64,000 nt of DNA from a virus, in IMG/VR virus record IMGVR_UViG_3300037068_000078, positions 1 to 64,000 of that record; one strand, 5' to 3'. This document shows positions 38,851 through 53,016 of this stretch, one piece after another. A program made the position numbers and the translations under genes. Position 1 is the stretch's first letter; each line of letters starts with the position of its first letter. A model generated the notes under the pieces. It saw nothing but the letters and a program-made list of their open reading frames with translations. It was not told where the DNA came from and did no database searches.

Positions 38851-38956
38851 CGGACGCAGGTACCGCACTCGCATCGAGGCGCTGCGCGCACTCAAGACTT
38901 TCAAGTTGAAGCCAGGACAGCTGGCGACGGTCATAGATGGAGGTACAGGTGAGTAG
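38720..38956 (+). CDS. Small basic protein overlapping the preceding ORF by 131 nt
   Basis: SD GAGGA before GTG; its stop overlaps the NUDIX start region. Confidence 0.5.
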   Translation: MKRKPSSTAKPRSKSKSEKSKTDRSEPIVTGEELRFRIVITYYDGRRYRTRIEALRALKTFKLKPGQLATVIDGGTGE

Positions 38957-39407
38957 ACTGATTATGGTGGCAGCGTTCGCGCTGTGCAACGAGGAGGTTC
39001 TTCTCGTGCGAAAGGAGAAGCCGAAGTGGCAGAGCGGCTTGCTGAACGGCGTGGGCGGCAAGGCAGAAGTACACGAGACGCCTCTTGATGCAATGTGCAG
39101 GGAGTTCTTGGAGGAGACCAACATCGAAGTCTCAGCCGATAGGTGGAACCACTTCGCGTCGGAGTTCGGGCGCGGCTACGTGGTGCACTTCTTCCGGTGT
39201 CGTCTCTCGACGCTGGTGCGTGACGTCACTCCCACGCAGAACGACGCGGGCGAGAAACTGTACTGGTACAACGCGCGCATGCTGGACAGGCAGTCGATCA
39301 TCGGCAACCTGCAGTGGCTCATCCCGCTGGCGGTGGACCCGCGCGGCTTCAACCGTCCAGTGATCGTGGACGCGATCGAGGACATCAAGGAGAACCCCAC
39401 GTGGTGA
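38949..39407 (+). CDS. NUDIX hydrolase
   Basis: Nudix box GGKAEVHETPLDAMCREFLEET. Confidence 0.9.
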   Translation: MSRLIMVAAFALCNEEVLLVRKEKPKWQSGLLNGVGGKAEVHETPLDAMCREFLEETNIEVSADRWNHFASEFGRGYVVHFFRCRLSTLVRDVTPTQNDAGEKLYWYNARMLDRQSIIGNLQWLIPLAVDPRGFNRPVIVDAIEDIKENPTW

Positions 39408-42709: not shown

Positions 42710-43189
42710 ATGTTTACGGAAGAGCTGAAACAACTGCTTGAGAAAGCCATCAAGCACGGAAACCGTGAAGCCAGAACTAGGATTGTGGTTCTGTCTGAGC
42801 ATGCTGGTGTCAGTGTGGTTTCGTATATCGAGCAAGAAGCTCAGCTAGAAGAAAAACAACAGCGATCTCCCGTGCAACACGCACCGCGTGAAAAGCTAGC
42901 AAAATTTCTGCAAGAGATCGAAGACACTGACTGGGATGGGGCCGGAGCTGAGACTCCGCCTGAGGAAGTGTTAGGCTCATTACAGCGGATGCGAGACAAT
43001 CATGACACATACGAAGAACTTTCAGATGGACAAAAGAGATTTGTCTCGCTGTTGGAGAACTTGTTTGACGCGCGTATGGCGTTTGAAGATGTTGACCGCG
43101 ACATGCTGTTCCCTTCAGGATTCCCAAGATATCGGAACAGCGCACGCAAAATGAAAGCGCTGGCAAAAGCAAACGGATGGAAGAAATGA
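42710..43189 (+). CDS. Hypothetical protein with low GC3
   Basis: Purine-rich RBS; many A/T-ending codons; ATGA overlap with the next gene. Confidence 0.6.
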   Translation: MFTEELKQLLEKAIKHGNREARTRIVVLSEHAGVSVVSYIEQEAQLEEKQQRSPVQHAPREKLAKFLQEIEDTDWDGAGAETPPEEVLGSLQRMRDNHDTYEELSDGQKRFVSLLENLFDARMAFEDVDRDMLFPSGFPRYRNSARKMKALAKANGWKK

Positions 43190-44136
43190 AGTCCGGCATC
43201 CAGCGCTTCTTCGCCTACGCACGCGCCCGCCACGAGATCACCCTGCGGCGGGCGCTGGGGCTACCGCGTCCGTGGACCAAGGACAGCATCCTTGACACGT
43301 ACCGCTTCACGTGCGTGTTCCGCGAGCAGGACAAGACAACCAAGTGGTTCCGGCAGAACGTGCGTGACCCCATGCGCAATGCACAGTCAGTGCTGCTAGC
43401 AACGGTGGTGTTCCGCATGCTCAATCGCATCGAGGTGGGCGAGGCCATCTTTCATGCCGAGTACAAGAACGGCGGCACGGCGTGGGATGCCTTCCTCGAG
43501 AGCCGCGACGTGCGCCACCTGCAGCGCGCCATCAAGCGAGCCATCCCGGACGGTCCCTACGTCACGGGCGGGTACATCATCACGTCTCCCCCCGGCTGCC
43601 CGAAGTTGGAGGGCATGATGAAGGTGATCAAGTCCTTTGAGCGGGGGGAGGAAGAGTGGGAGGGGCTTGGCGCTGGCATAATCGGCACGATGAATTGGGA
43701 CGGCGAGGAGGGGGCAGCAGAGTACATGCTGCACAATCGCGGCGATGTCACGCTCGAGAGTTGCTGGCGCTGGCTGCGTCGCTTCAAGTGGTTCGGTGAC
43801 TTCCACTCGTACGAGATCGTGACGGACCTGCGTCACACGCGACTGCTCGACATGGCACCTGACATCAACACTTGGGCCAATCCCGGCCCCGGTGCAAATC
43901 GCGGGGCGAACCGCGTGTACGGCCGTGACAAGGACACGCGCAATAGCAAGGAGAAGCTGAACGCGGAGATGCATGAACTTCTTGGTCATTCACTTGATAG
44001 CAAGTTGTGGCCGCAACGACCAGTCAATGAATGGCCAAGATGGGAGATGCGAGACGTAGAGCACACGCTCTGCGAGTTCGACAAGTACGAGCGCGTGCGG
44101 CTGGGCGAGGGGCGTCCTCGCGGAGTCTACAGGTGA
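43186..44136 (+). CDS. aGPT-PPlase1 family (alpha-glutamyl/putrescinyl-thymine pyrophosphorylase clade 1) DNA hypermodification enzyme
   Basis: PWT.D.IL..YRF..VFRE.DKTT, FR..NR, TG.YII, F.SYEIVTDL, NPGPGA.RG, RDVEHTLCEFDKY. Confidence 0.85.
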   Translation: MKSGIQRFFAYARARHEITLRRALGLPRPWTKDSILDTYRFTCVFREQDKTTKWFRQNVRDPMRNAQSVLLATVVFRMLNRIEVGEAIFHAEYKNGGTAWDAFLESRDVRHLQRAIKRAIPDGPYVTGGYIITSPPGCPKLEGMMKVIKSFERGEEEWEGLGAGIIGTMNWDGEEGAAEYMLHNRGDVTLESCWRWLRRFKWFGDFHSYEIVTDLRHTRLLDMAPDINTWANPGPGANRGANRVYGRDKDTRNSKEKLNAEMHELLGHSLDSKLWPQRPVNEWPRWEMRDVEHTLCEFDKYERVRLGEGRPRGVYR

Positions 44137-44137
44137 C

Positions 44138-44683
44138 ATGGCACTGACTGATGAAGAGAAAGAGAAGTTCCGGGCAGCGGTGACCAGCGGCGAATACTCC
44201 ATGTCGCAGATCGCCAGGATGTTCAACATGGTCTCAGTCAACGCGGCGATAGGGAGGGCGCACCGCATGGGTATCTCAAACGGCAGGGCACCGCTGAACA
44301 ATAACAAGCGCCGTTTACCCGAGGGCTCGGGTCTCGAGCTCATAAAGAAGATCGGGGCTGGCATACCGCGCAGGCCGCGCGGTCGTCCACCGGGCAGCAT
44401 GAGACTGACGTTCACGCCACCGCTCGGTGATGTCACGCCACCCAAGCTGAAGTTGATAGCAGAGTGGGACAAGAAGAAGTTTCCGCAGCCGAACGCCGCG
44501 TGCTTCGACTGCATCAACCTGTTCACGCAGTGCAAGTGGCCCATTCGTGATGAGCCAGTTCAGTTCTGCGGTGAGTTAAAGCGTGAAGCGAAACCGGGTG
44601 AGAAGTTGAACGATGTGCCGTATTGTGATAGGCACTCCAAGATGGCTAAACAGGAACCGTACAAGAAGGGAGAGCAGTGGTGA
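44138..44683 (+). CDS. gcrA: GcrA-like transcription regulator
   Basis: N-terminal S.SQIA....VS.NAAIGRAHRMG and C-terminal CKWPI...FCG...PYC..H. Confidence 0.8.
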   Translation: MALTDEEKEKFRAAVTSGEYSMSQIARMFNMVSVNAAIGRAHRMGISNGRAPLNNNKRRLPEGSGLELIKKIGAGIPRRPRGRPPGSMRLTFTPPLGDVTPPKLKLIAEWDKKKFPQPNAACFDCINLFTQCKWPIRDEPVQFCGELKREAKPGEKLNDVPYCDRHSKMAKQEPYKKGEQW

Positions 44684-45465
44684 GAGTTTATATCCCAAGC
44701 ATGGGCCGGGCGGGTGACATCGGCGCGAAGGTGATGACGTGCAACTACATTGACCGTGCGACCTACGTGGTGCCCTCGGCGGAGGTCAAGCGATATCAGA
44801 ACTCGCTCGGCATGCGCAAGGGCACGTACGAAGTACTTGCCTGCGACGAGGTCGGCATCGCGCAGACGCGGCGCTGGATCGGTGAGCAGGCCGCGTCGCG
44901 CAAGGAGGCCTCCTTCTGCATGATGGACGACGACCTGCGCTTTGCCGTGCGCGAGGGCAAGGATGGCATCAAGCTGCGCAATGCCGAGCGCCCGGACGTG
45001 GCAGCGATGCTGGAGTGGATTGCGGGCAGCTTAGGCAAGTACGCGCACGTCAGCGTATCGGCGCGTGACAAGAACCACACGAACACAGACGCGCATGACG
45101 TCAACTGTCGCACCCTGCGCGTGCTGGCCTACCAGACCAAGAAGTTCTTGGCGATGGAGCACGGGCGGGTGGCCGTGATGGAGGACTTCGACGTCAACCT
45201 GCAGCTGTTGCGCAGCGGCGAACAGAACATCTGCTCGTTCGTGTTCGCCAGCGACCAGCGCGAGACGGGATCCAAGGGTGGGTGCAGCAGCTACCGCACG
45301 TTGGAACTGCACAACGCAGCTGCGCATCGCATCGTGGAGCTTCACGCGCCCTTCGCCAAGCTGCGTGAGAAGGAGACCAAGGCCAAGGGCGTGTTGAGCA
45401 AGCGCATGGAGGTCACTATCTTTTGGAAGAAAGCGTTCGCATCGAGCCAGAGGAGAGCCGCATGA
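44677..45465 (+). CDS. GT-A glycosyltransferase (TET-associated/GREB1/JGT-like family)
   Basis: VYIPS.GRA, VVP..E...Y, GI..TR.WI, MMDDDL.F, EDFD..LQLL..G, GGCS.YR. Confidence 0.75.
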   Translation: MVRVYIPSMGRAGDIGAKVMTCNYIDRATYVVPSAEVKRYQNSLGMRKGTYEVLACDEVGIAQTRRWIGEQAASRKEASFCMMDDDLRFAVREGKDGIKLRNAERPDVAAMLEWIAGSLGKYAHVSVSARDKNHTNTDAHDVNCRTLRVLAYQTKKFLAMEHGRVAVMEDFDVNLQLLRSGEQNICSFVFASDQRETGSKGGCSSYRTLELHNAAAHRIVELHAPFAKLREKETKAKGVLSKRMEVTIFWKKAFASSQRRAA

Positions 45466-45710
45466 ATAACCCGTACGTTTGGGCCGCGCTCGCTGTTGCC
45501 GTTACACTGTGTGCACTTGGTGCAGCGTGGCGGATGGCGCACCGCGCGGAGCGTCACAGCCGCGATGAGTACGACCGGTTGATGCGCCGCGTGGGCACGG
45601 ACGGCGCGTACTACTACGGCGAAAGCGACACGGTCTATGACGAGTCCGGCATGTCGGCGGGCTTCGGCGTGGGACCACTGATCAAGAAGGATGGGAAAGA
45701 TGGCGTATAA
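45462..45710 (+). CDS. Small membrane-anchored protein
   Basis: SD GAGGAG; N-terminal TM helix. Confidence 0.55.
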   Translation: MNNPYVWAALAVAVTLCALGAAWRMAHRAERHSRDEYDRLMRRVGTDGAYYYGESDTVYDESGMSAGFGVGPLIKKDGKDGV

Positions 45711-46674
45711 GCAGGAGCCGCCGTTCGCGGTGCAGATCGAGCTCGCAGAGGGGTGCAACCTGCGCTGCTCCTTCTGCGGGCTGAATGGCATACGCGGCAA
45801 GGAGAACGACTTCAAGGTGATGACGGACAAGGTGCTGCAGTCCGCCATCAAGCAAATGCTGGCGTTGAACTGGAACCCGCGCATTGAGTTCGCAATGCAC
45901 GGCGAGCCCACCATGCATCCAGGCTTCGTGGACATGGTGAAGATCGTGCGCTGGCTCGCGCCCAAGTTCCACATCATGATGACCAGCAACGGCGGCGGAC
46001 TGCTGAAGAAGCCGGGGCCGGTGCAGCTGATTAAGGACCTGTTCGACGGTGGGCTCAACTGCCTAGCGCTGGACGACTACCAGGACGCGAAGCTGGTGCC
46101 GAAGATCCGCGCGGCACTGGGGAACAACCTGGGCGAGCACGTGGACGCGCAGGTGTACGAATATCCGGAGGACAAACGTGGCAACCCGCACGCAAGACAT
46201 CATCGACGCTCACTCGTCTTCATTCAAGCGATTGATGCAGCAACGACAGGAACTCACTCGCATCTCAACAATCATGCTGGAGCGGGAGCTCCTCCTAATG
46301 ATGACGGCGCTGGGAAGAGATGCGCTAAGCCATTTCGCGAACTTTCAATACGATGGGACGGTAACGTGGCGGTCTGCTGCAATGACTGGCGAGGTGTTTA
46401 CAAATGCGGAAATGTTGTTTCGGACGGTCTTGACACCGTCTGGAATGGTGATCCAATGCGCGCTGCCAGAGTTAAGCTCTACCACGGAGAGCGAGACTTT
46501 GGTCCATGCAACGGCTGCGATGCTAAGTCGGATCGCGTCGGACTTCTTCCAGATAAATTCGGCCGTGAGGATCTACCGAGAGTTTCAGCCGCCGTCAAGC
46601 GAGCAATCGGAGCCGCGCTTGAAGGTGATAGTTATACAAAAGCTGTACTGAGACCATGGGAGGTGGGGAAGTGA
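45691..46674 (+). CDS. Radical SAM enzyme with a twitch/SPASM domain
   Basis: CNLRCSFC, HGEP, TSNG, CAKPF...WDG.V.VCCND, CNGC. Confidence 0.9.
   Translation: MGKMAYKQEPPFAVQIELAEGCNLRCSFCGLNGIRGKENDFKVMTDKVLQSAIKQMLALNWNPRIEFAMHGEPTMHPGFVDMVKIVRWLAPKFHIMMTSNGGGLLKKPGPVQLIKDLFDGGLNCLALDDYQDAKLVPKIRAALGNNLGEHVDAQVYEYPEDKRGNPHARHHRRSLVFIQAIDAATTGTHSHLNNHAGAGAPPNDDGAGKRCAKPFRELSIRWDGNVAVCCNDWRGVYKCGNVVSDGLDTVWNGDPMRAARVKLYHGERDFGPCNGCDAKSDRVGLLPDKFGREDLPRVSAAVKRAIGAALEGDSYTKAVLRPWEVGK
46178..46651 (+). CDS. Overprinted 157-aa gene nested in the +1 frame of the radical SAM gene
   Basis: GGAGGA 5 nt before GTG. Host-frame GC3 falls abruptly over this interval. Confidence 0.7.
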   Translation: MATRTQDIIDAHSSSFKRLMQQRQELTRISTIMLERELLLMMTALGRDALSHFANFQYDGTVTWRSAAMTGEVFTNAEMLFRTVLTPSGMVIQCALPELSSTTESETLVHATAAMLSRIASDFFQINSAVRIYREFQPPSSEQSEPRLKVIVIQKLY

Positions 46675-46883
46675 ATACAGAAGAGAACACAGTTAAGCTG
46701 GTGGGACAGATAGAGAGGCGCACCGACTACATCGCCACCATCAACGGCGTGCTTCATCAGCTGTGGTGCCTCACGGACATGGCCCAGTATCACCAGCGAT
46801 GGGAGTGGCGCAAGGTGCCGTTCTACTCCAACGAGGAGGCATTGAAGATCGGTACGATCGTGGGAGGAGACAAGGCGCTGTGA
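46671..46883 (+). CDS. Hypothetical protein
   Basis: GTGA coupling; SD GGAGG. Confidence 0.55.
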   Translation: MNTEENTVKLVGQIERRTDYIATINGVLHQLWCLTDMAQYHQRWEWRKVPFYSNEEALKIGTIVGGDKAL

Positions 46884-47356
46884 GGAAGCCCATCATCATC
46901 GGCATGAACAACCCCATCAGCCTTGCGCCCGGTCACGAGCTCTATCCGCTGCCCGATGGCTGCACCGGCAACCGGCTGTGGAAGATGTTGGACGCCAGCA
47001 TGCAGACGCGCGGCAAGGGGCGCGTGAAGATGAAAGCGTACCTCGACGCGTTCGAGCGGCGCAACTTGGTGATCGACAAGGCGTGGAACAAGGTGGCGGC
47101 CCGCGCACGCGCCCACGAGATATCCATCGAGCTCTTCGGTAGCAAGCGCACGGTGGTCCTACTAGGCACGGAGGTAGCAAACGCCTTCGGCCTCCCCCCG
47201 CTCAAGCTTGTTCCGACGATGGTCGGGGGGATTGTATTCCGGCAGGTGCCGCACCCGTCGGGAAGGAACCTCTGGTACAACACGCCGGAGAACATGGTCA
47301 GCGTGGGGAACCTGCTCGCTGACCTATATGAGGAGAGCATTCGTGAAGATGCCTGA
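46880..47356 (+). CDS. Uracil-DNA glycosylase superfamily protein
   Basis: IIIGMNNP, TG.RL, RRNL, VVLLG..VA.AF, VPHPSGRN.WY. Confidence 0.65.
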   Translation: MRKPIIIGMNNPISLAPGHELYPLPDGCTGNRLWKMLDASMQTRGKGRVKMKAYLDAFERRNLVIDKAWNKVAARARAHEISIELFGSKRTVVLLGTEVANAFGLPPLKLVPTMVGGIVFRQVPHPSGRNLWYNTPENMVSVGNLLADLYEESIREDA

Positions 47357-47663
47357 GTGTAGTTGCTACGCGGCTGACGCCGTGGCTGCAGAGAACTTGA
47401 ACTACGACGTGGCGTGGGCAGCTGCTCACTCCGCTGAGTTAGCGGCGACGTTGAACGGAATATGTAAGGAGGCGTACCCGTACTACGTCAACACCGTAGT
47501 CGTCATGCTGCTGCGGAGCGTAGCAATACACACCAAGGGCAAGAGGAAGGAGGACGAGCGCTTTTTGGAGATACTGGAGACGCTCGTGGGTGATGTTAAA
47601 ATGCGCGACGACGTATTGAACGCGCTGCTGGAGCGCAACAGAGAGGGAAGAACCAATCAATGA
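47343..47663 (+). CDS. Hypothetical protein
   Basis: SD GAGGAG; ATGA coupling to the TS gene. Confidence 0.55.
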   Translation: MKMPECSCYAADAVAAENLNYDVAWAAAHSAELAATLNGICKEAYPYYVNTVVVMLLRSVAIHTKGKRKEDERFLEILETLVGDVKMRDDVLNALLERNREGRTNQ

Positions 47664-48739
47664 AAGTCATCAAGGGCCGGAACGTGAATGGGCTTTATGC
47701 CGTGGGCCACGACTACTTGACGTCGTATGGCGAGGAGGGGACGTCGCGCGCGGGGTCGGTGCTGGTATCACCCAAGCCCGTCACCTCGGTGTACCTGCAG
47801 CCGCGCGAGCGCGTGCTGTTCGACGCCGTGCGCAACGCCAACCCGTTCTTCCACATGATGGAGGGGCTGTGGATGCTGGCAGGACGCAGCGACGCCAAGT
47901 TTCTGAACCACTACGTGCGCGACTTCGGCAAGAATTTTGCGGAGGATGGTCTGTACATTCACGGCGCGTATGGTGACAGGTGGCGGAGCGCATTCGGCTT
48001 CGACCAGCTGACTGAGATTGTGGACAAGCTGCGCAAGAACCCGGACGACCGCCAGTGCGTATTGCAGATGTGGGACTCGCGCCCTGGCGCGCAGCACGAC
48101 GCGGGATGCGACGACCTGATGGGCGAGTGGAAGGACCGGCCCTGCAACACGCAGGCGTTCTTCCGCGTGCGCAAGGAGCACACGTTTCGGTTTCGCGGCG
48201 GCGAGTCGACCTACGACGACAAGCTCGACATGACCATCTGCTGCCGCAGCAACGACATCGTGTGGGGTGCCTACGGCGCGAACGCCGTGCACTTCAGCAT
48301 GCTGCAGGAGTACATGGCCGGGCGCATCGGCGTGGATGTCGGCACGCTCTATCAGGTGTCGAACAACTACCACGGTTATACGGCGGTGCTCGACGCGCTG
48401 GGCGACCCCATGCTGCAGGAGAGCGATCTGTACACCAGCGGCGAGGTCCACGCGCTGGACATGGGCACCGACTGGGGCAGGTGGGACGAGGACCTGAAGC
48501 ACTTCATGAAGTGGCACGACGACATTTTGTGGGCTGAGGGCCACGTGTCGTTCGGGACGAGCTTCTTCAACGAGTGGTTCACGCAGGTACCGATGCGCGC
48601 GGCTATTTCCAATTGGTGTCACCGCCGAGGCGACAAGGAGAAAGCGCTCGACTTCGCAAGTCGCATCGCCGCAAGCGACTGGCGCACCGCCTGCACGCAG
48701 TGGCTTCAGCGCAGGTACGACGGGAGCAACGGCAAGTGA
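47660..48739 (+). CDS. Thymidylate synthase homolog, probable dUMP hydroxymethylase
   Basis: NPFFH.ME..WMLAG, GAYG.RW, catalytic PCN, RSNDIVWG..GAN..HF (Asn indicates dUMP specificity), NNYH.Y. Confidence 0.85.
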   Translation: MKVIKGRNVNGLYAVGHDYLTSYGEEGTSRAGSVLVSPKPVTSVYLQPRERVLFDAVRNANPFFHMMEGLWMLAGRSDAKFLNHYVRDFGKNFAEDGLYIHGAYGDRWRSAFGFDQLTEIVDKLRKNPDDRQCVLQMWDSRPGAQHDAGCDDLMGEWKDRPCNTQAFFRVRKEHTFRFRGGESTYDDKLDMTICCRSNDIVWGAYGANAVHFSMLQEYMAGRIGVDVGTLYQVSNNYHGYTAVLDALGDPMLQESDLYTSGEVHALDMGTDWGRWDEDLKHFMKWHDDILWAEGHVSFGTSFFNEWFTQVPMRAAISNWCHRRGDKEKALDFASRIAASDWRTACTQWLQRRYDGSNGK

Positions 48740-49350
48740 TCGACGAGATCGAGAGCGACCCGCGCATTGCGGGGCAGATCACGCGATACCACACGTGGCC
48801 GCGCCTGCGCGACCAATCCGTGGGCGAGCACAGCTGGCAGATCACTCGCATCCTGCTGACCGTGTGGCCCGCCTGCCCGCGTCGCATGTTGGTGCACGCC
48901 ACGCTGCACGACGTGGGCGAGATGGCCGGGGACATACCGTACCCTGGCAAGCGCAACGACCCGGTGCTGAAGGACAGAATGGACGCGGCCGAGCGGGCGG
49001 TGCATTACAGAATGACGGAGCGGTGGCGCTTGCCCTCGCCCGCCATCCTGTCTCACTACGAGGAGAAGGTGTTCAAGTGCATCGAGTACATCGAGATGTG
49101 GGAGTACGGCCTGCAGGAGCAGAACCTCGGCAACAAGTACGGCGCGGTCGTCTCACTGCGCATGATCGTGGCGGCCAACGCGTTGATCGACGCGCTGGTG
49201 CCAACGCGCGGTGACCCGGACATTCGTCCGTCGATCCGCAAGTACGTGGACGAGCGCAAGCGGCAGGAGTGGGGAGCAGAGGGCGTGCCCCCGCGCCTGA
49301 GAGCCGAGCAGGCAATCGAGAAGCAACAGGAGGAGCAGAGCAATGGCTAA
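48736..49350 (+). CDS. HD-domain deoxynucleotidase (YfbR-like)
   Basis: RYH...QSVGEHS, LHD..E..GDIP.P.K. Confidence 0.8.
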   Translation: MIDEIESDPRIAGQITRYHTWPRLRDQSVGEHSWQITRILLTVWPACPRRMLVHATLHDVGEMAGDIPYPGKRNDPVLKDRMDAAERAVHYRMTERWRLPSPAILSHYEEKVFKCIEYIEMWEYGLQEQNLGNKYGAVVSLRMIVAANALIDALVPTRGDPDIRPSIRKYVDERKRQEWGAEGVPPRLRAEQAIEKQQEEQSNG

Positions 49351-50233
49351 CACGGGAATGGAACACATGAAGCACCTGCAGGCGGTCGTGGATAGCGACG
49401 TCCGCGTGCTGCAGAAGAAGGAGGCGACCTACCAGGGCAGCTGGAAGCGCGCTGGCGGGCGCTCGGCTTGGTTCATGATGCGCCGGAACATGGACCGGCT
49501 CATCGAGATGATGAAGAAGCCCGACGCCGGACACGGCTTCAGCGTCGAGGACCTCGACGATGCCATCCGTCACGCCACAGTGCGCGAGCCCACGAACCAA
49601 GATGTCACGCTTGACGCGTCGATAGTTAAGTACCTGCGCGACAGCTACTTGGCCGAGAACGTGTTCGCCAAGATCCGCGAGAACCCGGATGGCCGCGATG
49701 GCACCGTGCTCGCCTGCCTGCGCGACCTGCGTCGCTACCTCACGCTCATCGAGGCCGAGATGATCTCGCGCGGCGTCGTGAAGAACGAGATGCCAGCAAC
49801 GCTCGATGAGCTGTTGACCAAGCCACTCGTTGTAATGGAGACAGTTGTCACGACTGATCCAGTGCGCGCCCCATGGCAGATCTGCCACGCGCCCATGTCG
49901 CTCGACAGTCCACAGGAGACCGAGTTACTGCAGCACTTCTACTCGCAGCGCACGGAGACCATGTGGCAGCTGGAGCCGTTCGTCGTGAGCGATAACCTAC
50001 CGCGCTCACTAGTGAGCTACTACAATCTATCGGCACACGACAATCGAACGTGGGTGCTGCGCGTGCAGAATGCGCCCGCAGAACTGCGCGACCAGTGGCC
50101 GCGTCTGCAGCCAGAGCTCAACGCCAAGGAGCACGAGGACCACCCGAACCGTTTCATGTACGAGTGGCTAGACGGCCCGCAGAAGTACAGGCTGCGCGAC
50201 AGGTACGTCACGTTCTGGGGGAGGGAGGCGTGA
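49343..50233 (+). CDS. Nmad1/MazG-like all-alpha nucleotide-modification-associated protein with a C-terminal extension
   Basis: KK..TY.GSWKR.GG...M.R..DRL and DLRRYL.LIEAE. Confidence 0.55.
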   Translation: MANTGMEHMKHLQAVVDSDVRVLQKKEATYQGSWKRAGGRSAWFMMRRNMDRLIEMMKKPDAGHGFSVEDLDDAIRHATVREPTNQDVTLDASIVKYLRDSYLAENVFAKIRENPDGRDGTVLACLRDLRRYLTLIEAEMISRGVVKNEMPATLDELLTKPLVVMETVVTTDPVRAPWQICHAPMSLDSPQETELLQHFYSQRTETMWQLEPFVVSDNLPRSLVSYYNLSAHDNRTWVLRVQNAPAELRDQWPRLQPELNAKEHEDHPNRFMYEWLDGPQKYRLRDRYVTFWGREA

Positions 50234-50505
50234 GCATCACGTACAACCCGGCCACGCTTAGGTTCGGCTGCGACGCGTGCGACGAGGCATTGGTTATAGA
50301 GGAGAGCGCTGGGGGCGGGGCTGACAGGCTGCCTCCCGCGTGGGGCAGAGTATCACTGTCCACTGGAGCAGACCCCAACACGGGATGGTACGAGGCAACA
50401 AGCTCGATCCTGTGCCCCGCATGCGTGATCAAATACAAGAAAAAGGTGATAGGTGAAGGCGACGACAAAAAGCATACGGCCCCGTCGGCAGGTTCTCAAT
50501 CCTAA
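50230..50505 (+). CDS. Small Zn-finger protein
   Basis: CDAC...P.AW...LCPAC. Confidence 0.6.
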   Translation: MSITYNPATLRFGCDACDEALVIEESAGGGADRLPPAWGRVSLSTGADPNTGWYEATSSILCPACVIKYKKKVIGEGDDKKHTAPSAGSQS

Positions 50506-52549
50506 CCAGATGCCGTTGATCACGCCGAACTCCACGTGGGTTCGGCCGTCGGAACTCCCGGACCTGCGAGGGCTCCGGGAGTTCGCCATTGACACAGAGG
50601 AGAAGGACGATGGACTTGCCAACGATCGCGGCCCCGGTTGGGTGTACGGCGCTGGTCACGTTGCTGGTGTTAGCTGCGCTTGGCGCGAGGGCGACGGCAC
50701 GCTGCGGTCGATCTACGCACCCGTACGCCACCCGGACAGCGACTGCTTCGATCACGACGCTGTACGCAGGTGGCTCAAGGACCACTTCAACTGTGGTGCG
50801 CGGGTCATATTCCAGAACGGGCCGTACGACCTAGGTTGGATCGAGCAGGACTTCGGCGTTAAGGCTCCGGAGCACATCGACGACATCGGCTGCATGGCGG
50901 TGATGATCGACGAGACACATCGCGAGTACAGCCTGGACGCCATCTCGCGGCGACTGGGGCGGCAGGGCAAGAACATGCGCGAGCTCATCGAGGCCGCGCA
51001 CGCCTACGGCTATCCAGCTGCCAAGGTCAAGGAGGCGATCGGCAGGATGCCCGCGCGCTACGTGGGGCCGTATGCAGAACAAGACGCAGTCGAGACGCTG
51101 CTCGGGGCCGAGGACATGCGGCCGGAGTTGGCGGAGCAGGGCTTGCTCAACGCCTACCAGCTGGAGATGGATCTCATCCCGCTGATCCACGCCATGCGCA
51201 AGCGCGGCATTCGCATGGACATGGACCGGCTGTACGCAAACCGCGACAAGCTCTACGAGATGCGCGACGAGACGCTGAAGGAGATACAGCGCAGGTGCGG
51301 TGGCCGCCAGCTGGTGATGGAGGACATCCGCTCGGAGGACTGGCTGCACCGCACGTTCGGCGCGCAGGGTGTCGAGTACCGGGGTGACGATGGCTCCTAT
51401 AACTTCCAAAAGGACTGGATGCGTCAAGGCTACCTGGGACGCTACCAGGACGGCAAGGAGGGCCACTGGCTGCCGCTACTGGTGGCGCGTGCCAAGCAAT
51501 GTCACGATAGCGCCGACAAGTTCATCGATGGCTTCCTCATCAACTTCGCGCACAACGGGCGCATCCATGCCAGCATCAATCAGTTCCTGAACGAGGACGG
51601 TGGCACCCGCACGCACCGCTTCTCCTACTCTGATCCCCCGCTCCAACAGATGCCGAGCCGGGGGGAGATGCTGATAAAGACGTGGCTGTTGACGAAGCAG
51701 ATCGTGGAGATGATCCGCGTGTGCTTCCTGCCGGAGCGTGGTGAGAAATGGTTCAGCCCGGACTACTCGCAGCAGGAGTACCGGCTGATGGTGCACTACG
51801 CTGCGATGGAGGAGTTGACGAAGGCGGACTGGGCCGCGCAGAAATACATCGACGACGTCAACACCGACTTCCACAACATGGTGGTGGAGATGACGGGCTT
51901 GCCGCGCCAGCGCGCCAAGGACGTGAACTTCGCCAAGTCGTACGGCGCTGGCCTGAAGAAGTTCGCGGCCATGACGGGCATGACGCTGGAGGAGTCTGAG
52001 AAGACAATCACGCAGTACGACACCGAGATGCCGTTCATTAAGCAGTTGAACGAGCGCTGCGACAAGGCCGCGCAGCAGCGCGGGTACATCGTGATGCTCG
52101 ACGGCGCACGCATGCACTTCAACACCTGGGAGTGCGCCAAGTGGATCGACTACGACGTCAAGCGCGCGGCGGAGTTCGCGGGCTATAAGCAGAACGACTG
52201 CCACAAGGATGAGGCGCTTGAGCGCACGCGCACACCGGGGCATCCGTGGTTCGGCAAGCCGTTGCGCCGCGCCAACACGCGCAAGGCCATGAACGGCTTG
52301 ATCCAGGGTGGGTCGGCGCGCATGGGCAAGCGCGCGATGCGCGACATGTGGCGCGAGGGCTACGTGCCGCTCGTGCAGATGCATGACGAATTCCCCAACT
52401 CCGTCGCGAAGGAGAAGGATGGCAAGCGCATTGCTGAGATCATGCGGTCTGCCTTCAAGGGGCGCGTGCCGTTCAAGGTGGATGAGGAGTACGGACCCAA
52501 TTGGGGAGAGGCGAAATACAAATGGAAGGAAGTCAAGGCAGCAGCATGA
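50453..52549 (+). CDS. polA: DNA polymerase, family A, with 3'-5' exonuclease
   Basis: ExoI AIDTE; motif A DYSQQEYR; motif B RAKDVNFAKSYG; motif C MHDE. Confidence 0.95.
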   Translation: MKATTKSIRPRRQVLNPNQMPLITPNSTWVRPSELPDLRGLREFAIDTEEKDDGLANDRGPGWVYGAGHVAGVSCAWREGDGTLRSIYAPVRHPDSDCFDHDAVRRWLKDHFNCGARVIFQNGPYDLGWIEQDFGVKAPEHIDDIGCMAVMIDETHREYSLDAISRRLGRQGKNMRELIEAAHAYGYPAAKVKEAIGRMPARYVGPYAEQDAVETLLGAEDMRPELAEQGLLNAYQLEMDLIPLIHAMRKRGIRMDMDRLYANRDKLYEMRDETLKEIQRRCGGRQLVMEDIRSEDWLHRTFGAQGVEYRGDDGSYNFQKDWMRQGYLGRYQDGKEGHWLPLLVARAKQCHDSADKFIDGFLINFAHNGRIHASINQFLNEDGGTRTHRFSYSDPPLQQMPSRGEMLIKTWLLTKQIVEMIRVCFLPERGEKWFSPDYSQQEYRLMVHYAAMEELTKADWAAQKYIDDVNTDFHNMVVEMTGLPRQRAKDVNFAKSYGAGLKKFAAMTGMTLEESEKTITQYDTEMPFIKQLNERCDKAAQQRGYIVMLDGARMHFNTWECAKWIDYDVKRAAEFAGYKQNDCHKDEALERTRTPGHPWFGKPLRRANTRKAMNGLIQGGSARMGKRAMRDMWREGYVPLVQMHDEFPNSVAKEKDGKRIAEIMRSAFKGRVPFKVDEEYGPNWGEAKYKWKEVKAAA

Positions 52550-53016
52550 GAAAACTACCGAGCCAAACTGTTCTCTGCACGCTGTTCCGATATGCGCCCA
52601 AGTCCGGTGTGCTCACGCGGTGGGATGGCCGCACCTGCGGCAAGAAGGTGTCGATCAAGAATGCCGACTACTGGGCCACGCGCGTGGTGTGGAAGATGCA
52701 GACAGGCAGCGACCCGCGCGTGGTGGTGCCGCGCGATGGCGACCCGAGCAACCTGCGCTGGTCCAACCTGATGGAAACCAGCCACAGCGGGCACCGGGTG
52801 CGGGGCGCGGCACACAGTACCAGCAAGACCGGCCTGCGGGGCGTGTATAAGGTGGGTGCCCGGACCTACCGGGCTCAGGTGTGGTGGCGGGGCCGCAAGC
52901 TACACTTGGGCACCTTTCCGTCCGGGGTGGCAGCTGTGGCGGCCCGCAAGACGGCCCTGGCGCGACTTATGGCGGGCAAACCGGCTCTCACAGCTGCCAA
53001 GATAAGGTCGCGTTAA
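52546..53016 (+). CDS. Degenerate HNH plus AP2-domain protein
   Basis: LFRY.P.SG; HNH scaffold without the DH motif; AP2 SKTGLRGVY...YRAQ...LHLGTF...A..AR. Confidence 0.75.
   Translation: MRKLPSQTVLCTLFRYAPKSGVLTRWDGRTCGKKVSIKNADYWATRVVWKMQTGSDPRVVVPRDGDPSNLRWSNLMETSHSGHRVRGAAHSTSKTGLRGVYKVGARTYRAQVWWRGRKLHLGTFPSGVAAVAARKTALARLMAGKPALTAAKIRSR

Follow-up and report, generated by a model that had tools for sequence, protein, structure and literature searches.

To our knowledge, all characterized thymidine hypermodifications derived from 5-hydroxymethyldeoxyuridine (5-hmdU) attach amino acids or polyamines by means of a kinase and an amino-acid:DNA transferase (AADT), and we know of phage DNA glycosylation only on cytosine derivatives. 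In the M6-like systems hmdU is made pre-replicatively and then modified post-replicatively, and the M6-like phages M6 and PaMx11 make their DNA via 5-hmdU (PMC8989533). Here we describe a gene cluster at 43.2–50.2 kb of a 64,000-nucleotide stretch of viral DNA, called the window below, which is the first 64 kb of the 77,728-bp IMG/VR virus record IMGVR_UViG_3300037068_000078. The same pre- and post-replicative scheme is predicted for this cluster, with a glycosyltransferase (GT) and a radical S-adenosylmethionine enzyme (rSAM) as tailoring genes. We lean, if modestly, toward reading it as a sugar-type module for thymidine hypermodification that works without a kinase and belongs to a virulent siphophage of the M6/PhiJL001 type, in which hmdU is formed, glycosylated by the GT and tailored by the rSAM.

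The clusters of M6, PaMx11, and MW2 (Lee et al., 2018, 2021) share with the window a common backbone in the same order, consisting of a clade-1 aGPT-PPlase (PPlase), a thymidylate synthase (TS) homolog, an HD protein, and the family A DNA polymerase PolA. Identities to PaMx11 gp50, gp51, gp52, and gp55 are 46, 43, 30, and 29%, respectively, and PolA is 29–30% identical to the polymerases of PaMx11 and MW2. However, the kinase, AADT, pyridoxal phosphate (PLP) enzyme, flavin adenine dinucleotide (FAD) enzyme, acetyltransferase, and SPL-like rSAM that carry out tailoring in the M6-like systems are absent here, and a GT and a BtrN-like rSAM are found instead. The cultured alphaproteobacterial phage PhiJL001 (AY576273, gp19–gp28) has the same core of PPlase (42% identity), TAGT-family GT (gp22, 34%), hydroxymethylase (gp24, 41%), and PolA, but it lacks the rSAM and encodes an Nmad5 protein between the GT and the TS homolog. 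The GT, hydroxymethylase, and PPlase core is also present in a Manatee Spring virome genome. In an NEB metagenome survey of DNA glycosyltransferases of phages, GT-A genes were split about evenly between 5mYOX and ThyS neighborhoods, and radical SAM enzymes were not mentioned (bioRxiv 10.1101/2023.12.21.572611). The preliminary description of the window, made from the sequence alone, had not recognized the gene set as characterized; given PhiJL001 and the reported GT-A/ThyS link, the only parts that lack an earlier description are the rSAM layer and the setting without a kinase. Searches of a limited literature collection yielded no combination of radical SAM chemistry with DNA glycosylation, no glycosylated hmU of a phage, and no published analysis of the PhiJL001 DNA base.

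Two further systems resemble the predicted one. In phages with 5mYOX/TET and TAGT enzymes, 5-hydroxymethylcytosine is glycosylated (Burke, 2021; Pyle, 2024), and the same GT-A family thus acts on a 5-hydroxymethylpyrimidine. Here, by contrast, the hydroxymethyl group would come from a uracil-specific TS homolog before replication, and there is neither a dioxygenase nor a methyltransferase. Base J of kinetoplastids (JBP1/2 and JGT) belongs to the same predicted product class, a GT-A-made O-glycosylated 5-hydroxymethyluracil (hmU) in DNA. Unlike in base J synthesis, no JBP/TET dioxygenase is encoded, hmU is predicted to replace T globally and not at about 1% of sites, and a radical tailoring step would be added. 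TAGT and JGT are related only distantly, at the level of structure (bioRxiv 10.1101/2023.12.21.572611).

The virus is an uncultured soil phage that, judged by DNA and protein similarity, belongs with the siphophages of the M6/PaMx11/MW2/PhiJL001 group (Mesyanzhinovviridae). Among public sequencing runs, a single DNA run covers the stretch in full, a rhizosphere metagenome that may be the source sample, and no RNA run is listed for it. CheckV estimates the record to be 100% complete. The window has a GC content of about 61%, with structural genes at 0–23 kb and replication genes at 35–53 kb. All genes of the cluster lie on the plus strand and are tightly packed, most of them joined by overlapping start and stop codons, in the place where the preliminary description had seen one coupled operon (43186–50233) next to PolA. 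A scan for promoters and terminators gave no more sites than in shuffled sequence.

Glycosyltransferase and radical SAM enzyme

The GT of the cluster scores 48.7 bits against PF20691 (cut-off 27.5), and its DXD motif (D84-D85-D86) is invariant in nine sequences. Based on its family and context it is predicted to be an hmU-DNA glycosyltransferase; no solved structure was matched by sequence search. The TAGT family owes its name to TET/JBP dioxygenases, but the enzyme found here is not tied to one. PF12851 is absent, and among 80 IMG/VR loci selected by their TAGT gene a TS homolog accompanies 72, with a PPlase in 64, an rSAM in 37, and a kinase in 2. The whole phage genome contains no second GT, and the window represents the minimal version of the module, with one GT and one rSAM.

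In the rSAM, the CX3CX2C motif (C22, C26, C29) and C211, C229, C230, C273, and C276 are invariant in 14 sequences, and the C-terminal Cys set reads as a single twitch-type auxiliary cluster rather than a seven-Cys SPASM domain. An AlphaFold2 (AF2) model of the protein (pLDDT 77.8) matched BtrN (2-deoxy-scyllo-inosamine dehydrogenase, PDB 4m7t) in Foldseek with E 2.7e-12, and VIA-align superimposed the two with Z 21.7 and an rmsd of 2.4 Å over 227 of the 246 BtrN residues at 21% identity. The next solved structures reached Z 13.8 at best, with anSME, ChlB, PqqE, SuiB, DesII, SpeY, and BlsE at Z 12–14. These next matches include the sugar-acting enzymes DesII, SpeY, BlsE, and AbmM, with anSME, PqqE, ChlB, SuiB, and CteB scoring equally or higher. 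Judged by the model, the rSAM is specifically BtrN-like and is predicted to be a sugar-tailoring enzyme, which would act as a dehydrogenase on a sugar-like secondary alcohol. It shares with BtrN the fold over the whole length, the CX3CX2C motif, and the single auxiliary Cys set, but it has an insert at residues 184–208, a C-terminal extension of about 40 residues, and a fifth invariant Cys that forms a CC pair. Unlike BtrN, it is encoded by a phage beside DNA-modification genes and outside any aminoglycoside pathway. An epimerase that uses Cys as hydrogen donor (compare NeoN) would presumably also account for this additional Cys.

At a threshold of E ≤ 1e-5, 1,377 metagenomic sequences are related to the rSAM, the closest at 72–77% identity and none under a specific name, and the NCBIfam twitch and other equivalog models all score the protein far below their cut-offs. 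No close homolog was found in any GenBank phage. Among 185,579 species genomes there was one match, a phage-sized contig of a metagenome-assembled genome (MAG) that carries the same module. The isoelectric points of the family (6.6–9.3) do not discriminate between DNA and a small molecule as substrate.

The rSAM gene has an uneven composition. The GC content at third codon positions (GC3) drops from 0.88 in the N-terminal half to 0.45 in the C-terminal half (46177–46674). The +1 frame there has 194 codons without a stop, the alternative frame lies at 46178–46651, and the residues of the rSAM are all intact. Eleven homologous genes have equal GC3 in both halves and no such open +1 frame. Because codon position 3 of the rSAM is position 2 of the alternative frame, the pattern is compatible both with overprinting and with a mosaic origin from a donor of low GC content.

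The GT and rSAM genes are linked across phage genomes. When IMG/VR loci were selected by their rSAM, 29 of 30 contained a GT, which was a TAGT directly upstream in 26 and a non-homologous GT-B in three (L009, L020, L034). The GT-B proteins have 331 amino acids and group in the ESM Atlas with T4 beta-glucosyltransferase and other GT-B enzymes (0.97–0.98, TM about 0.7). A P-loop kinase stands beside the GT-B in L020 and L034; none was detected in the truncated locus L009. The sole rSAM locus without a recognizable GT, L007, has an upstream open reading frame (ORF) of 266 amino acids without Pfam match. Additional genes occur in some loci: GT4-like paralogs between TAGT and rSAM (two in L005, one in L006), an FkbM methyltransferase and a GT4-like gene beside the rSAM in L010, and kinase, GT-B, TAGT, and rSAM all together in L036. 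A second sample comprised the best 80 of at least 573 IMG/VR relatives of the PPlase (loci L117–L196), picked by the PPlase gene alone. In this sample 28 loci had a GT, and the rSAM was present in 10 of these; the other 52 loci, which lacked a GT, never contained it (Fisher p = 8e-6). The rSAM is thus found essentially only where a GT is present, even a non-homologous one. The module recurs in dozens of IMG/VR contigs whose loci range from 38 to 65% GC, and it is almost absent from cellular genomes.

Besides this linkage, the samples revealed two other gene combinations. The T4-beta-GT-like GT-B (L020 6991–7986, L034 6991–7989, L036 6078–7004) matches no Pfam or PHROG family and is accompanied by a P-loop kinase related to 5-HMUDK in 7 of 7 loci of the PPlase sample (Fisher p = 5e-5), which suggests a kinase and GT-B sub-module separate from the TAGT route. 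The contig of L047 (IMGVR_UViG_3300020576_001247) carries an AADT, an FAD enzyme, a kinase, two PPlase copies, a TAGT, and a hydroxymethylase, and it is possibly a hybrid of the amino-acid and sugar routes.

Putative hydroxymethylase, PPlase, and genes absent from the genome

The TS homolog matches PF00303 with 66.3 bits (cut-off 24.3), the Pfam match covering the core only, and belongs to phrog_5131 (E 1.6e-99), a phage family of M6-like enzymes. Its catalytic Cys162, located in a PCN motif, is kept in 104 of 104 homologs of the fetched loci. In the alignment, Asn208 falls on an Asn in bacterial thymidylate synthase and on an Asp in the CMP hydroxymethylase MilA, and this pyrimidine-specificity position is Asn, the uracil type, in all 104 homologs. 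We infer that the protein supplies 5-hmdUMP rather than dTMP, because it groups with the enzymes of M6 and PaMx11, phages that make DNA with 5-hmdU. A second, weak tblastn match to TS lies at 69.2–69.9 kb (E 0.26). The HD gene starts with a GTG that overlaps the stop codon of the TS homolog (GTGA; sequence 48730–48740), and its product is likely a dTMP- or dNTP-pool enzyme. A NUDIX hydrolase encoded upstream of the cluster likely sanitizes the nucleotide pool, and PolA would be the replicative polymerase that has to accept hmdUTP.

When the entire record of 77,728 bp was searched for protein families in all six frames, no 5-hmdU kinase (PF18748 or PF18747 type), no AADT (PF18724), and no TET/JBP (PF12851) was identified. 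The kinase, AADT, PLP enzyme, FAD enzyme, and SPL-like rSAM of PaMx11 and MW2 likewise had no tblastn match in the genome. Of the long ORFs, the one that encodes the UvrD helicase alone contains a Walker A motif.

The PPlase aligns to PF18723 (Pfam HMUDK_hel) with 146 bits (cut-off 25), its residues 8–310 spanning profile positions 4–277 of 281. This family, formerly aGPT-PPlase1, includes M6 gp55, PaMx11 gp50, and the C-terminal half of SP10 gp186. The protein of the window lacks a P-loop or Walker A motif, and no solved structure was matched by sequence search. In its VEHxLCE motif, E295, H296, C299, and E300 are invariant in 11 homologs, and the motif aligns with EVETxLC of the AADTs, the site of their only conserved Cys. 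In AADTs the Cys and a neighboring Glu are essential (PMC8989533), and Glu and Thr bind metal (PMC13458397). The profile match to a single AADT is weak, however (hhalign E 0.054), and the shared motif is a lead and not a proof. In 38 of the 80 loci of the PPlase sample the TS homolog was the only other queried gene, kinase, AADT, and GT all being absent, whereas a kinase was present in 22 and a GT in 28. The Pfam name "5-hmdU DNA kinase, helical domain" thus describes a minority of the family. The PPlase is a general companion of the hydroxymethylase and probably an enzyme. Because it accompanies the hydroxymethylase in at least 573 IMG/VR loci, most of which lack a GT, a kinase, and an AADT, it probably serves hmU DNA in general instead of handling the adduct, and the family may constitute a stand-alone enzyme of hmU DNA.

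The predicted pathway and its alternatives

In the pathway that we propose from homology, the TS homolog would hydroxymethylate dUMP, the HD and NUDIX proteins would clean the nucleotide pool, and PolA would build DNA with 5-hmdU replacing T. Subsequently, TAGT would move a hexose from a host NDP-sugar onto the 5-CH2OH group of hmU in DNA, as its family and context suggest, and the product would be a base-J-like O-glycoside formed without a dioxygenase. In a third step, for which fold and co-occurrence argue, the BtrN-like rSAM would abstract hydrogen from a carbon of the sugar and remodel it. As a default guess, the most likely reaction would convert a secondary alcohol to a ketone as in BtrN, with epimerization or deoxygenation as alternatives; the substrate would most likely be the sugar after its attachment to DNA, or else, possibly, the sugar donor prior to transfer. 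The modification would likely shield the phage DNA from host nucleases. This scheme keeps the central idea of the preliminary description, which now has better support. Pre-replicative hmU, direct glycosylation without TET or kinase, and radical tailoring agree with the uracil-type TS homolog, the BtrN-like rSAM, and its co-occurrence with GTs, the analysis by which that description had suggested checking the idea. The kinase, TET/JBP, and PLP decarboxylase that it had not seen in the window are missing over the entire 77.7-kb genome, as established by family search and tblastn. Its assignment of adduct handling to the PPlase, in contrast, is not retained.

Several points speak against this pathway. 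The substrate of BtrN is a free small molecule and not a polymer, and a ketone would normally have to be processed further by an aminotransferase or reductase, neither of which is encoded here. Support for the module is genomic only, and what we say of the sugar, its linkage, and the radical reaction is guesswork. Sequence does not separate methylase from hydroxymethylase in this case, so that homology is the sole basis for the hydroxymethylation step, and the co-occurrence counts and Fisher tests take no account of common descent among the contigs. Because the record is a metagenomic assembly that lacks terminal repeats, a gene may have been missed elsewhere despite the CheckV estimate. Finally, members of the TAGT family can glycosylate a sugar and not a base, as does the T6 enzyme (PMC13390438).

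The most specific version of the proposal states that the rSAM remodels the sugar of glycosyl-hmU on the DNA polymer, by oxidation, epimerization, or deoxygenation, and that the clade-1 PPlase is a kinase-independent C5-methylene enzyme of hundreds of hmU phages. We offer it tentatively, as a possible account that we would sooner expect to fail in some part than to hold in full. Its closest competitor, which we consider rather unlikely, places the radical step on the free NDP-sugar donor. The GT would then move an unusual sugar to hmU-DNA, and no radical chemistry would take place on DNA. BtrN, DesII, SpeY, and BlsE, the closest solved structures, are all small-molecule enzymes, and the association of the rSAM with three GT types (TAGT, T4-beta-GT-like, and GT4-like) fits the supply of a donor as well as a role after transfer. 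However, no other sugar-nucleotide genes (dehydratase, aminotransferase, nucleotidyltransferase) are present in the genome, and the rSAM family keeps its extension of about 40 C-terminal residues past the BtrN core. Moreover, the other characterized tailoring enzymes of thymidine hypermodification work on the polymer (PMC8989533).

Alternatively, the rSAM could act on the side chain of the base, either by oxidizing 5-hmU to 5-formylU in a manner like anSME or by a C5 rearrangement of the M6 gp53 type, with the GT performing an independent second modification. M6 gp53 sets a precedent for a radical SAM enzyme that works on DNA at a C5 substituent (PMC8989533), and anSME is among the structural matches (Z 13.8). 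We nevertheless regard this option as improbable, since the rSAM occurs in none of the 52 GT-less loci of the PPlase sample and 29 of 30 rSAM loci have a GT, since there is no similarity to the SPL-like rSAM of M6 (gp53) and MW2 (gp13), and since BtrN is far closer than anSME.

Still less probable is that the clade-1 PPlase is a real transferase, whose Cys/Glu site exchanges the activated C5 substituent for another nucleophile, here sugar or water in place of phosphate, so that the final base is not a glycoside. The alignment of its invariant VEHxLCE with the essential Cys/Glu motif of AADTs, in which the Glu binds metal (PMC8989533; PMC13458397) would be consistent with such an activity, as would its standing as the commonest partner of the hydroxymethylase, the two being the only queried genes in 38 of 80 loci. 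Against this, an O-glycoside is a poor leaving group, the AADT profile match is weak, and the homologous M6 gp55 was dispensable for rebuilding the M6 base in vitro (PMC8989533). That there is no DNA hypermodification at all, the TS homolog being an ordinary thymidylate synthase and the GT and rSAM acting on a host surface glycan or metabolite, is very improbable: sequence cannot tell methylase from hydroxymethylase and the Pfam match to TS covers only the core, but the genes are in tight synteny with PolA, the PPlase, and a MUG/TDG-like gene in more than 100 phage loci, the TAGT family is known only from DNA glycosylation, and the rSAM family is essentially absent from cellular genomes except for the one phage-sized MAG contig.

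Neighboring genes and significance

Table 1. Positions of the cluster genes and of associated genes in the window.
Feature	Position	Strand	Family matches and remarks
NUDIX hydrolase	38937–39407	+	PF00293 E 8e-11, 42.5 bits (cut-off 21.1); upstream of the cluster
Clade-1 aGPT-PPlase (Pfam HMUDK_hel)	43177–44136	+	PF18723 E 1.9e-42; phrog_2396 E 4e-62
GcrA-like protein	44138–44683	+	PF07750 50.6 bits (cut-off 26.9); between PPlase and GT
TAGT-family GT-A glycosyltransferase	44677–45465	+	PF20691 E 1.1e-12; phrog_842 E 9e-36
Small ORF, 82 aa from ATG, one hydrophobic helix (membrane-protein type)	45462–45710	+	ORF list, translation
Twitch radical SAM enzyme, BtrN-like	45691–46674 (gene caller's start 45700)	+	PF04055 and PF13186 (E 4.5e-12)
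MUG/TDG-fold protein (UDG family 2-like)	46883–47356 (start uncertain; ORF opens 46763)	+	phrog_12275 E 7e-19
Thymidylate synthase homolog, putative dUMP hydroxymethylase type	47660–48739	+	PF00303; phrog_5131
HD-domain phosphohydrolase	48736–49350	+	phrog_6047 E 9e-23; YfbR-like, HD_3 below Pfam cut-off
Conserved 296-aa protein	49343–50233	+	No family match; homologs at the same position in many related loci
Family A DNA polymerase PolA	50453–52549	+	PF00476 E 2e-36

The gene content reported in the preliminary description (Table 1) was largely recovered, with aGPT-PPlase1, GT-A, rSAM, TS homolog, HD protein, PolA, and the upstream NUDIX hydrolase all identified. Its upstream HAD gene could not be found, as PF13419 and PF00702 are without match anywhere in the genome. 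The 296-aa protein, which it had called Nmad1/MazG-like, has no Pfam, PHROG, or NCBIfam match, PF07659 is absent genome-wide, and the ESM Atlas offered a lead of 0.83 only. Its UDG-like gene was upheld in part: the AF2 model of the product (pLDDT 91) matched human TDG (3ufj, E 2e-6) and E. coli MUG (1mug, E 2e-5) in Foldseek, yet there is no sequence match to PF03167, the Pfam family of UDGs. Overall, the structural matches of this protein range from E 2e-6 to 1e-4 with TM 0.6–0.7 (0.66–0.70 for TDG and MUG), and the motifs GMNNP and HPSGRN are invariant in its family. Homologs in the unannotated family phrog_12275 occur in Bordetella phage MW2 (gp08, 31% identical), PhiJL001, and many contigs of hmU phages, and the gene is part of the M6-like backbone. 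According to its modeled fold, the protein could survey the modified genome for U, T, or hmU.

Two genes flanking the TAGT are peculiar to the window. The product encoded between PPlase and TAGT appears GcrA-like but not equivalent to GcrA, as it reaches 40 bits against the NCBIfam GcrA equivalog with its cut-off of 280. Because the gene has no homolog in about 190 related loci, it lies outside the conserved module and is a recent window-specific insertion, which speaks against a conserved pair of writer and reader. Combined with the possible rhizosphere origin of the record, the gene may point to an alphaproteobacterial host. The small ORF downstream of the TAGT overlaps the TAGT stop codon (ATGA) and, by 20 nt, the start of the rSAM; it has no PHROG match and no tblastn relative in the related loci. 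Two further genes were noted farther downstream, an HNH endonuclease gene directly after PolA (window 52501–53016) and, past the window end, a transposase-like gene (phrog_4285, E 5e-29; L035 2245–3105, corresponding to genome 65245–66105).

Taken at its present strength, the module predicts a third route to hypermodified DNA, in which sugars are placed on hmU without kinase or dioxygenase and are then tailored by radical chemistry. If the rSAM does act on the DNA polymer, it would be the first radical SAM enzyme to tailor a sugar on DNA, and its product would be a new thymine derivative. The enzymes could become tools for site-selective DNA glycosylation, and PhiJL001 provides a cultured phage for the core of the pathway.

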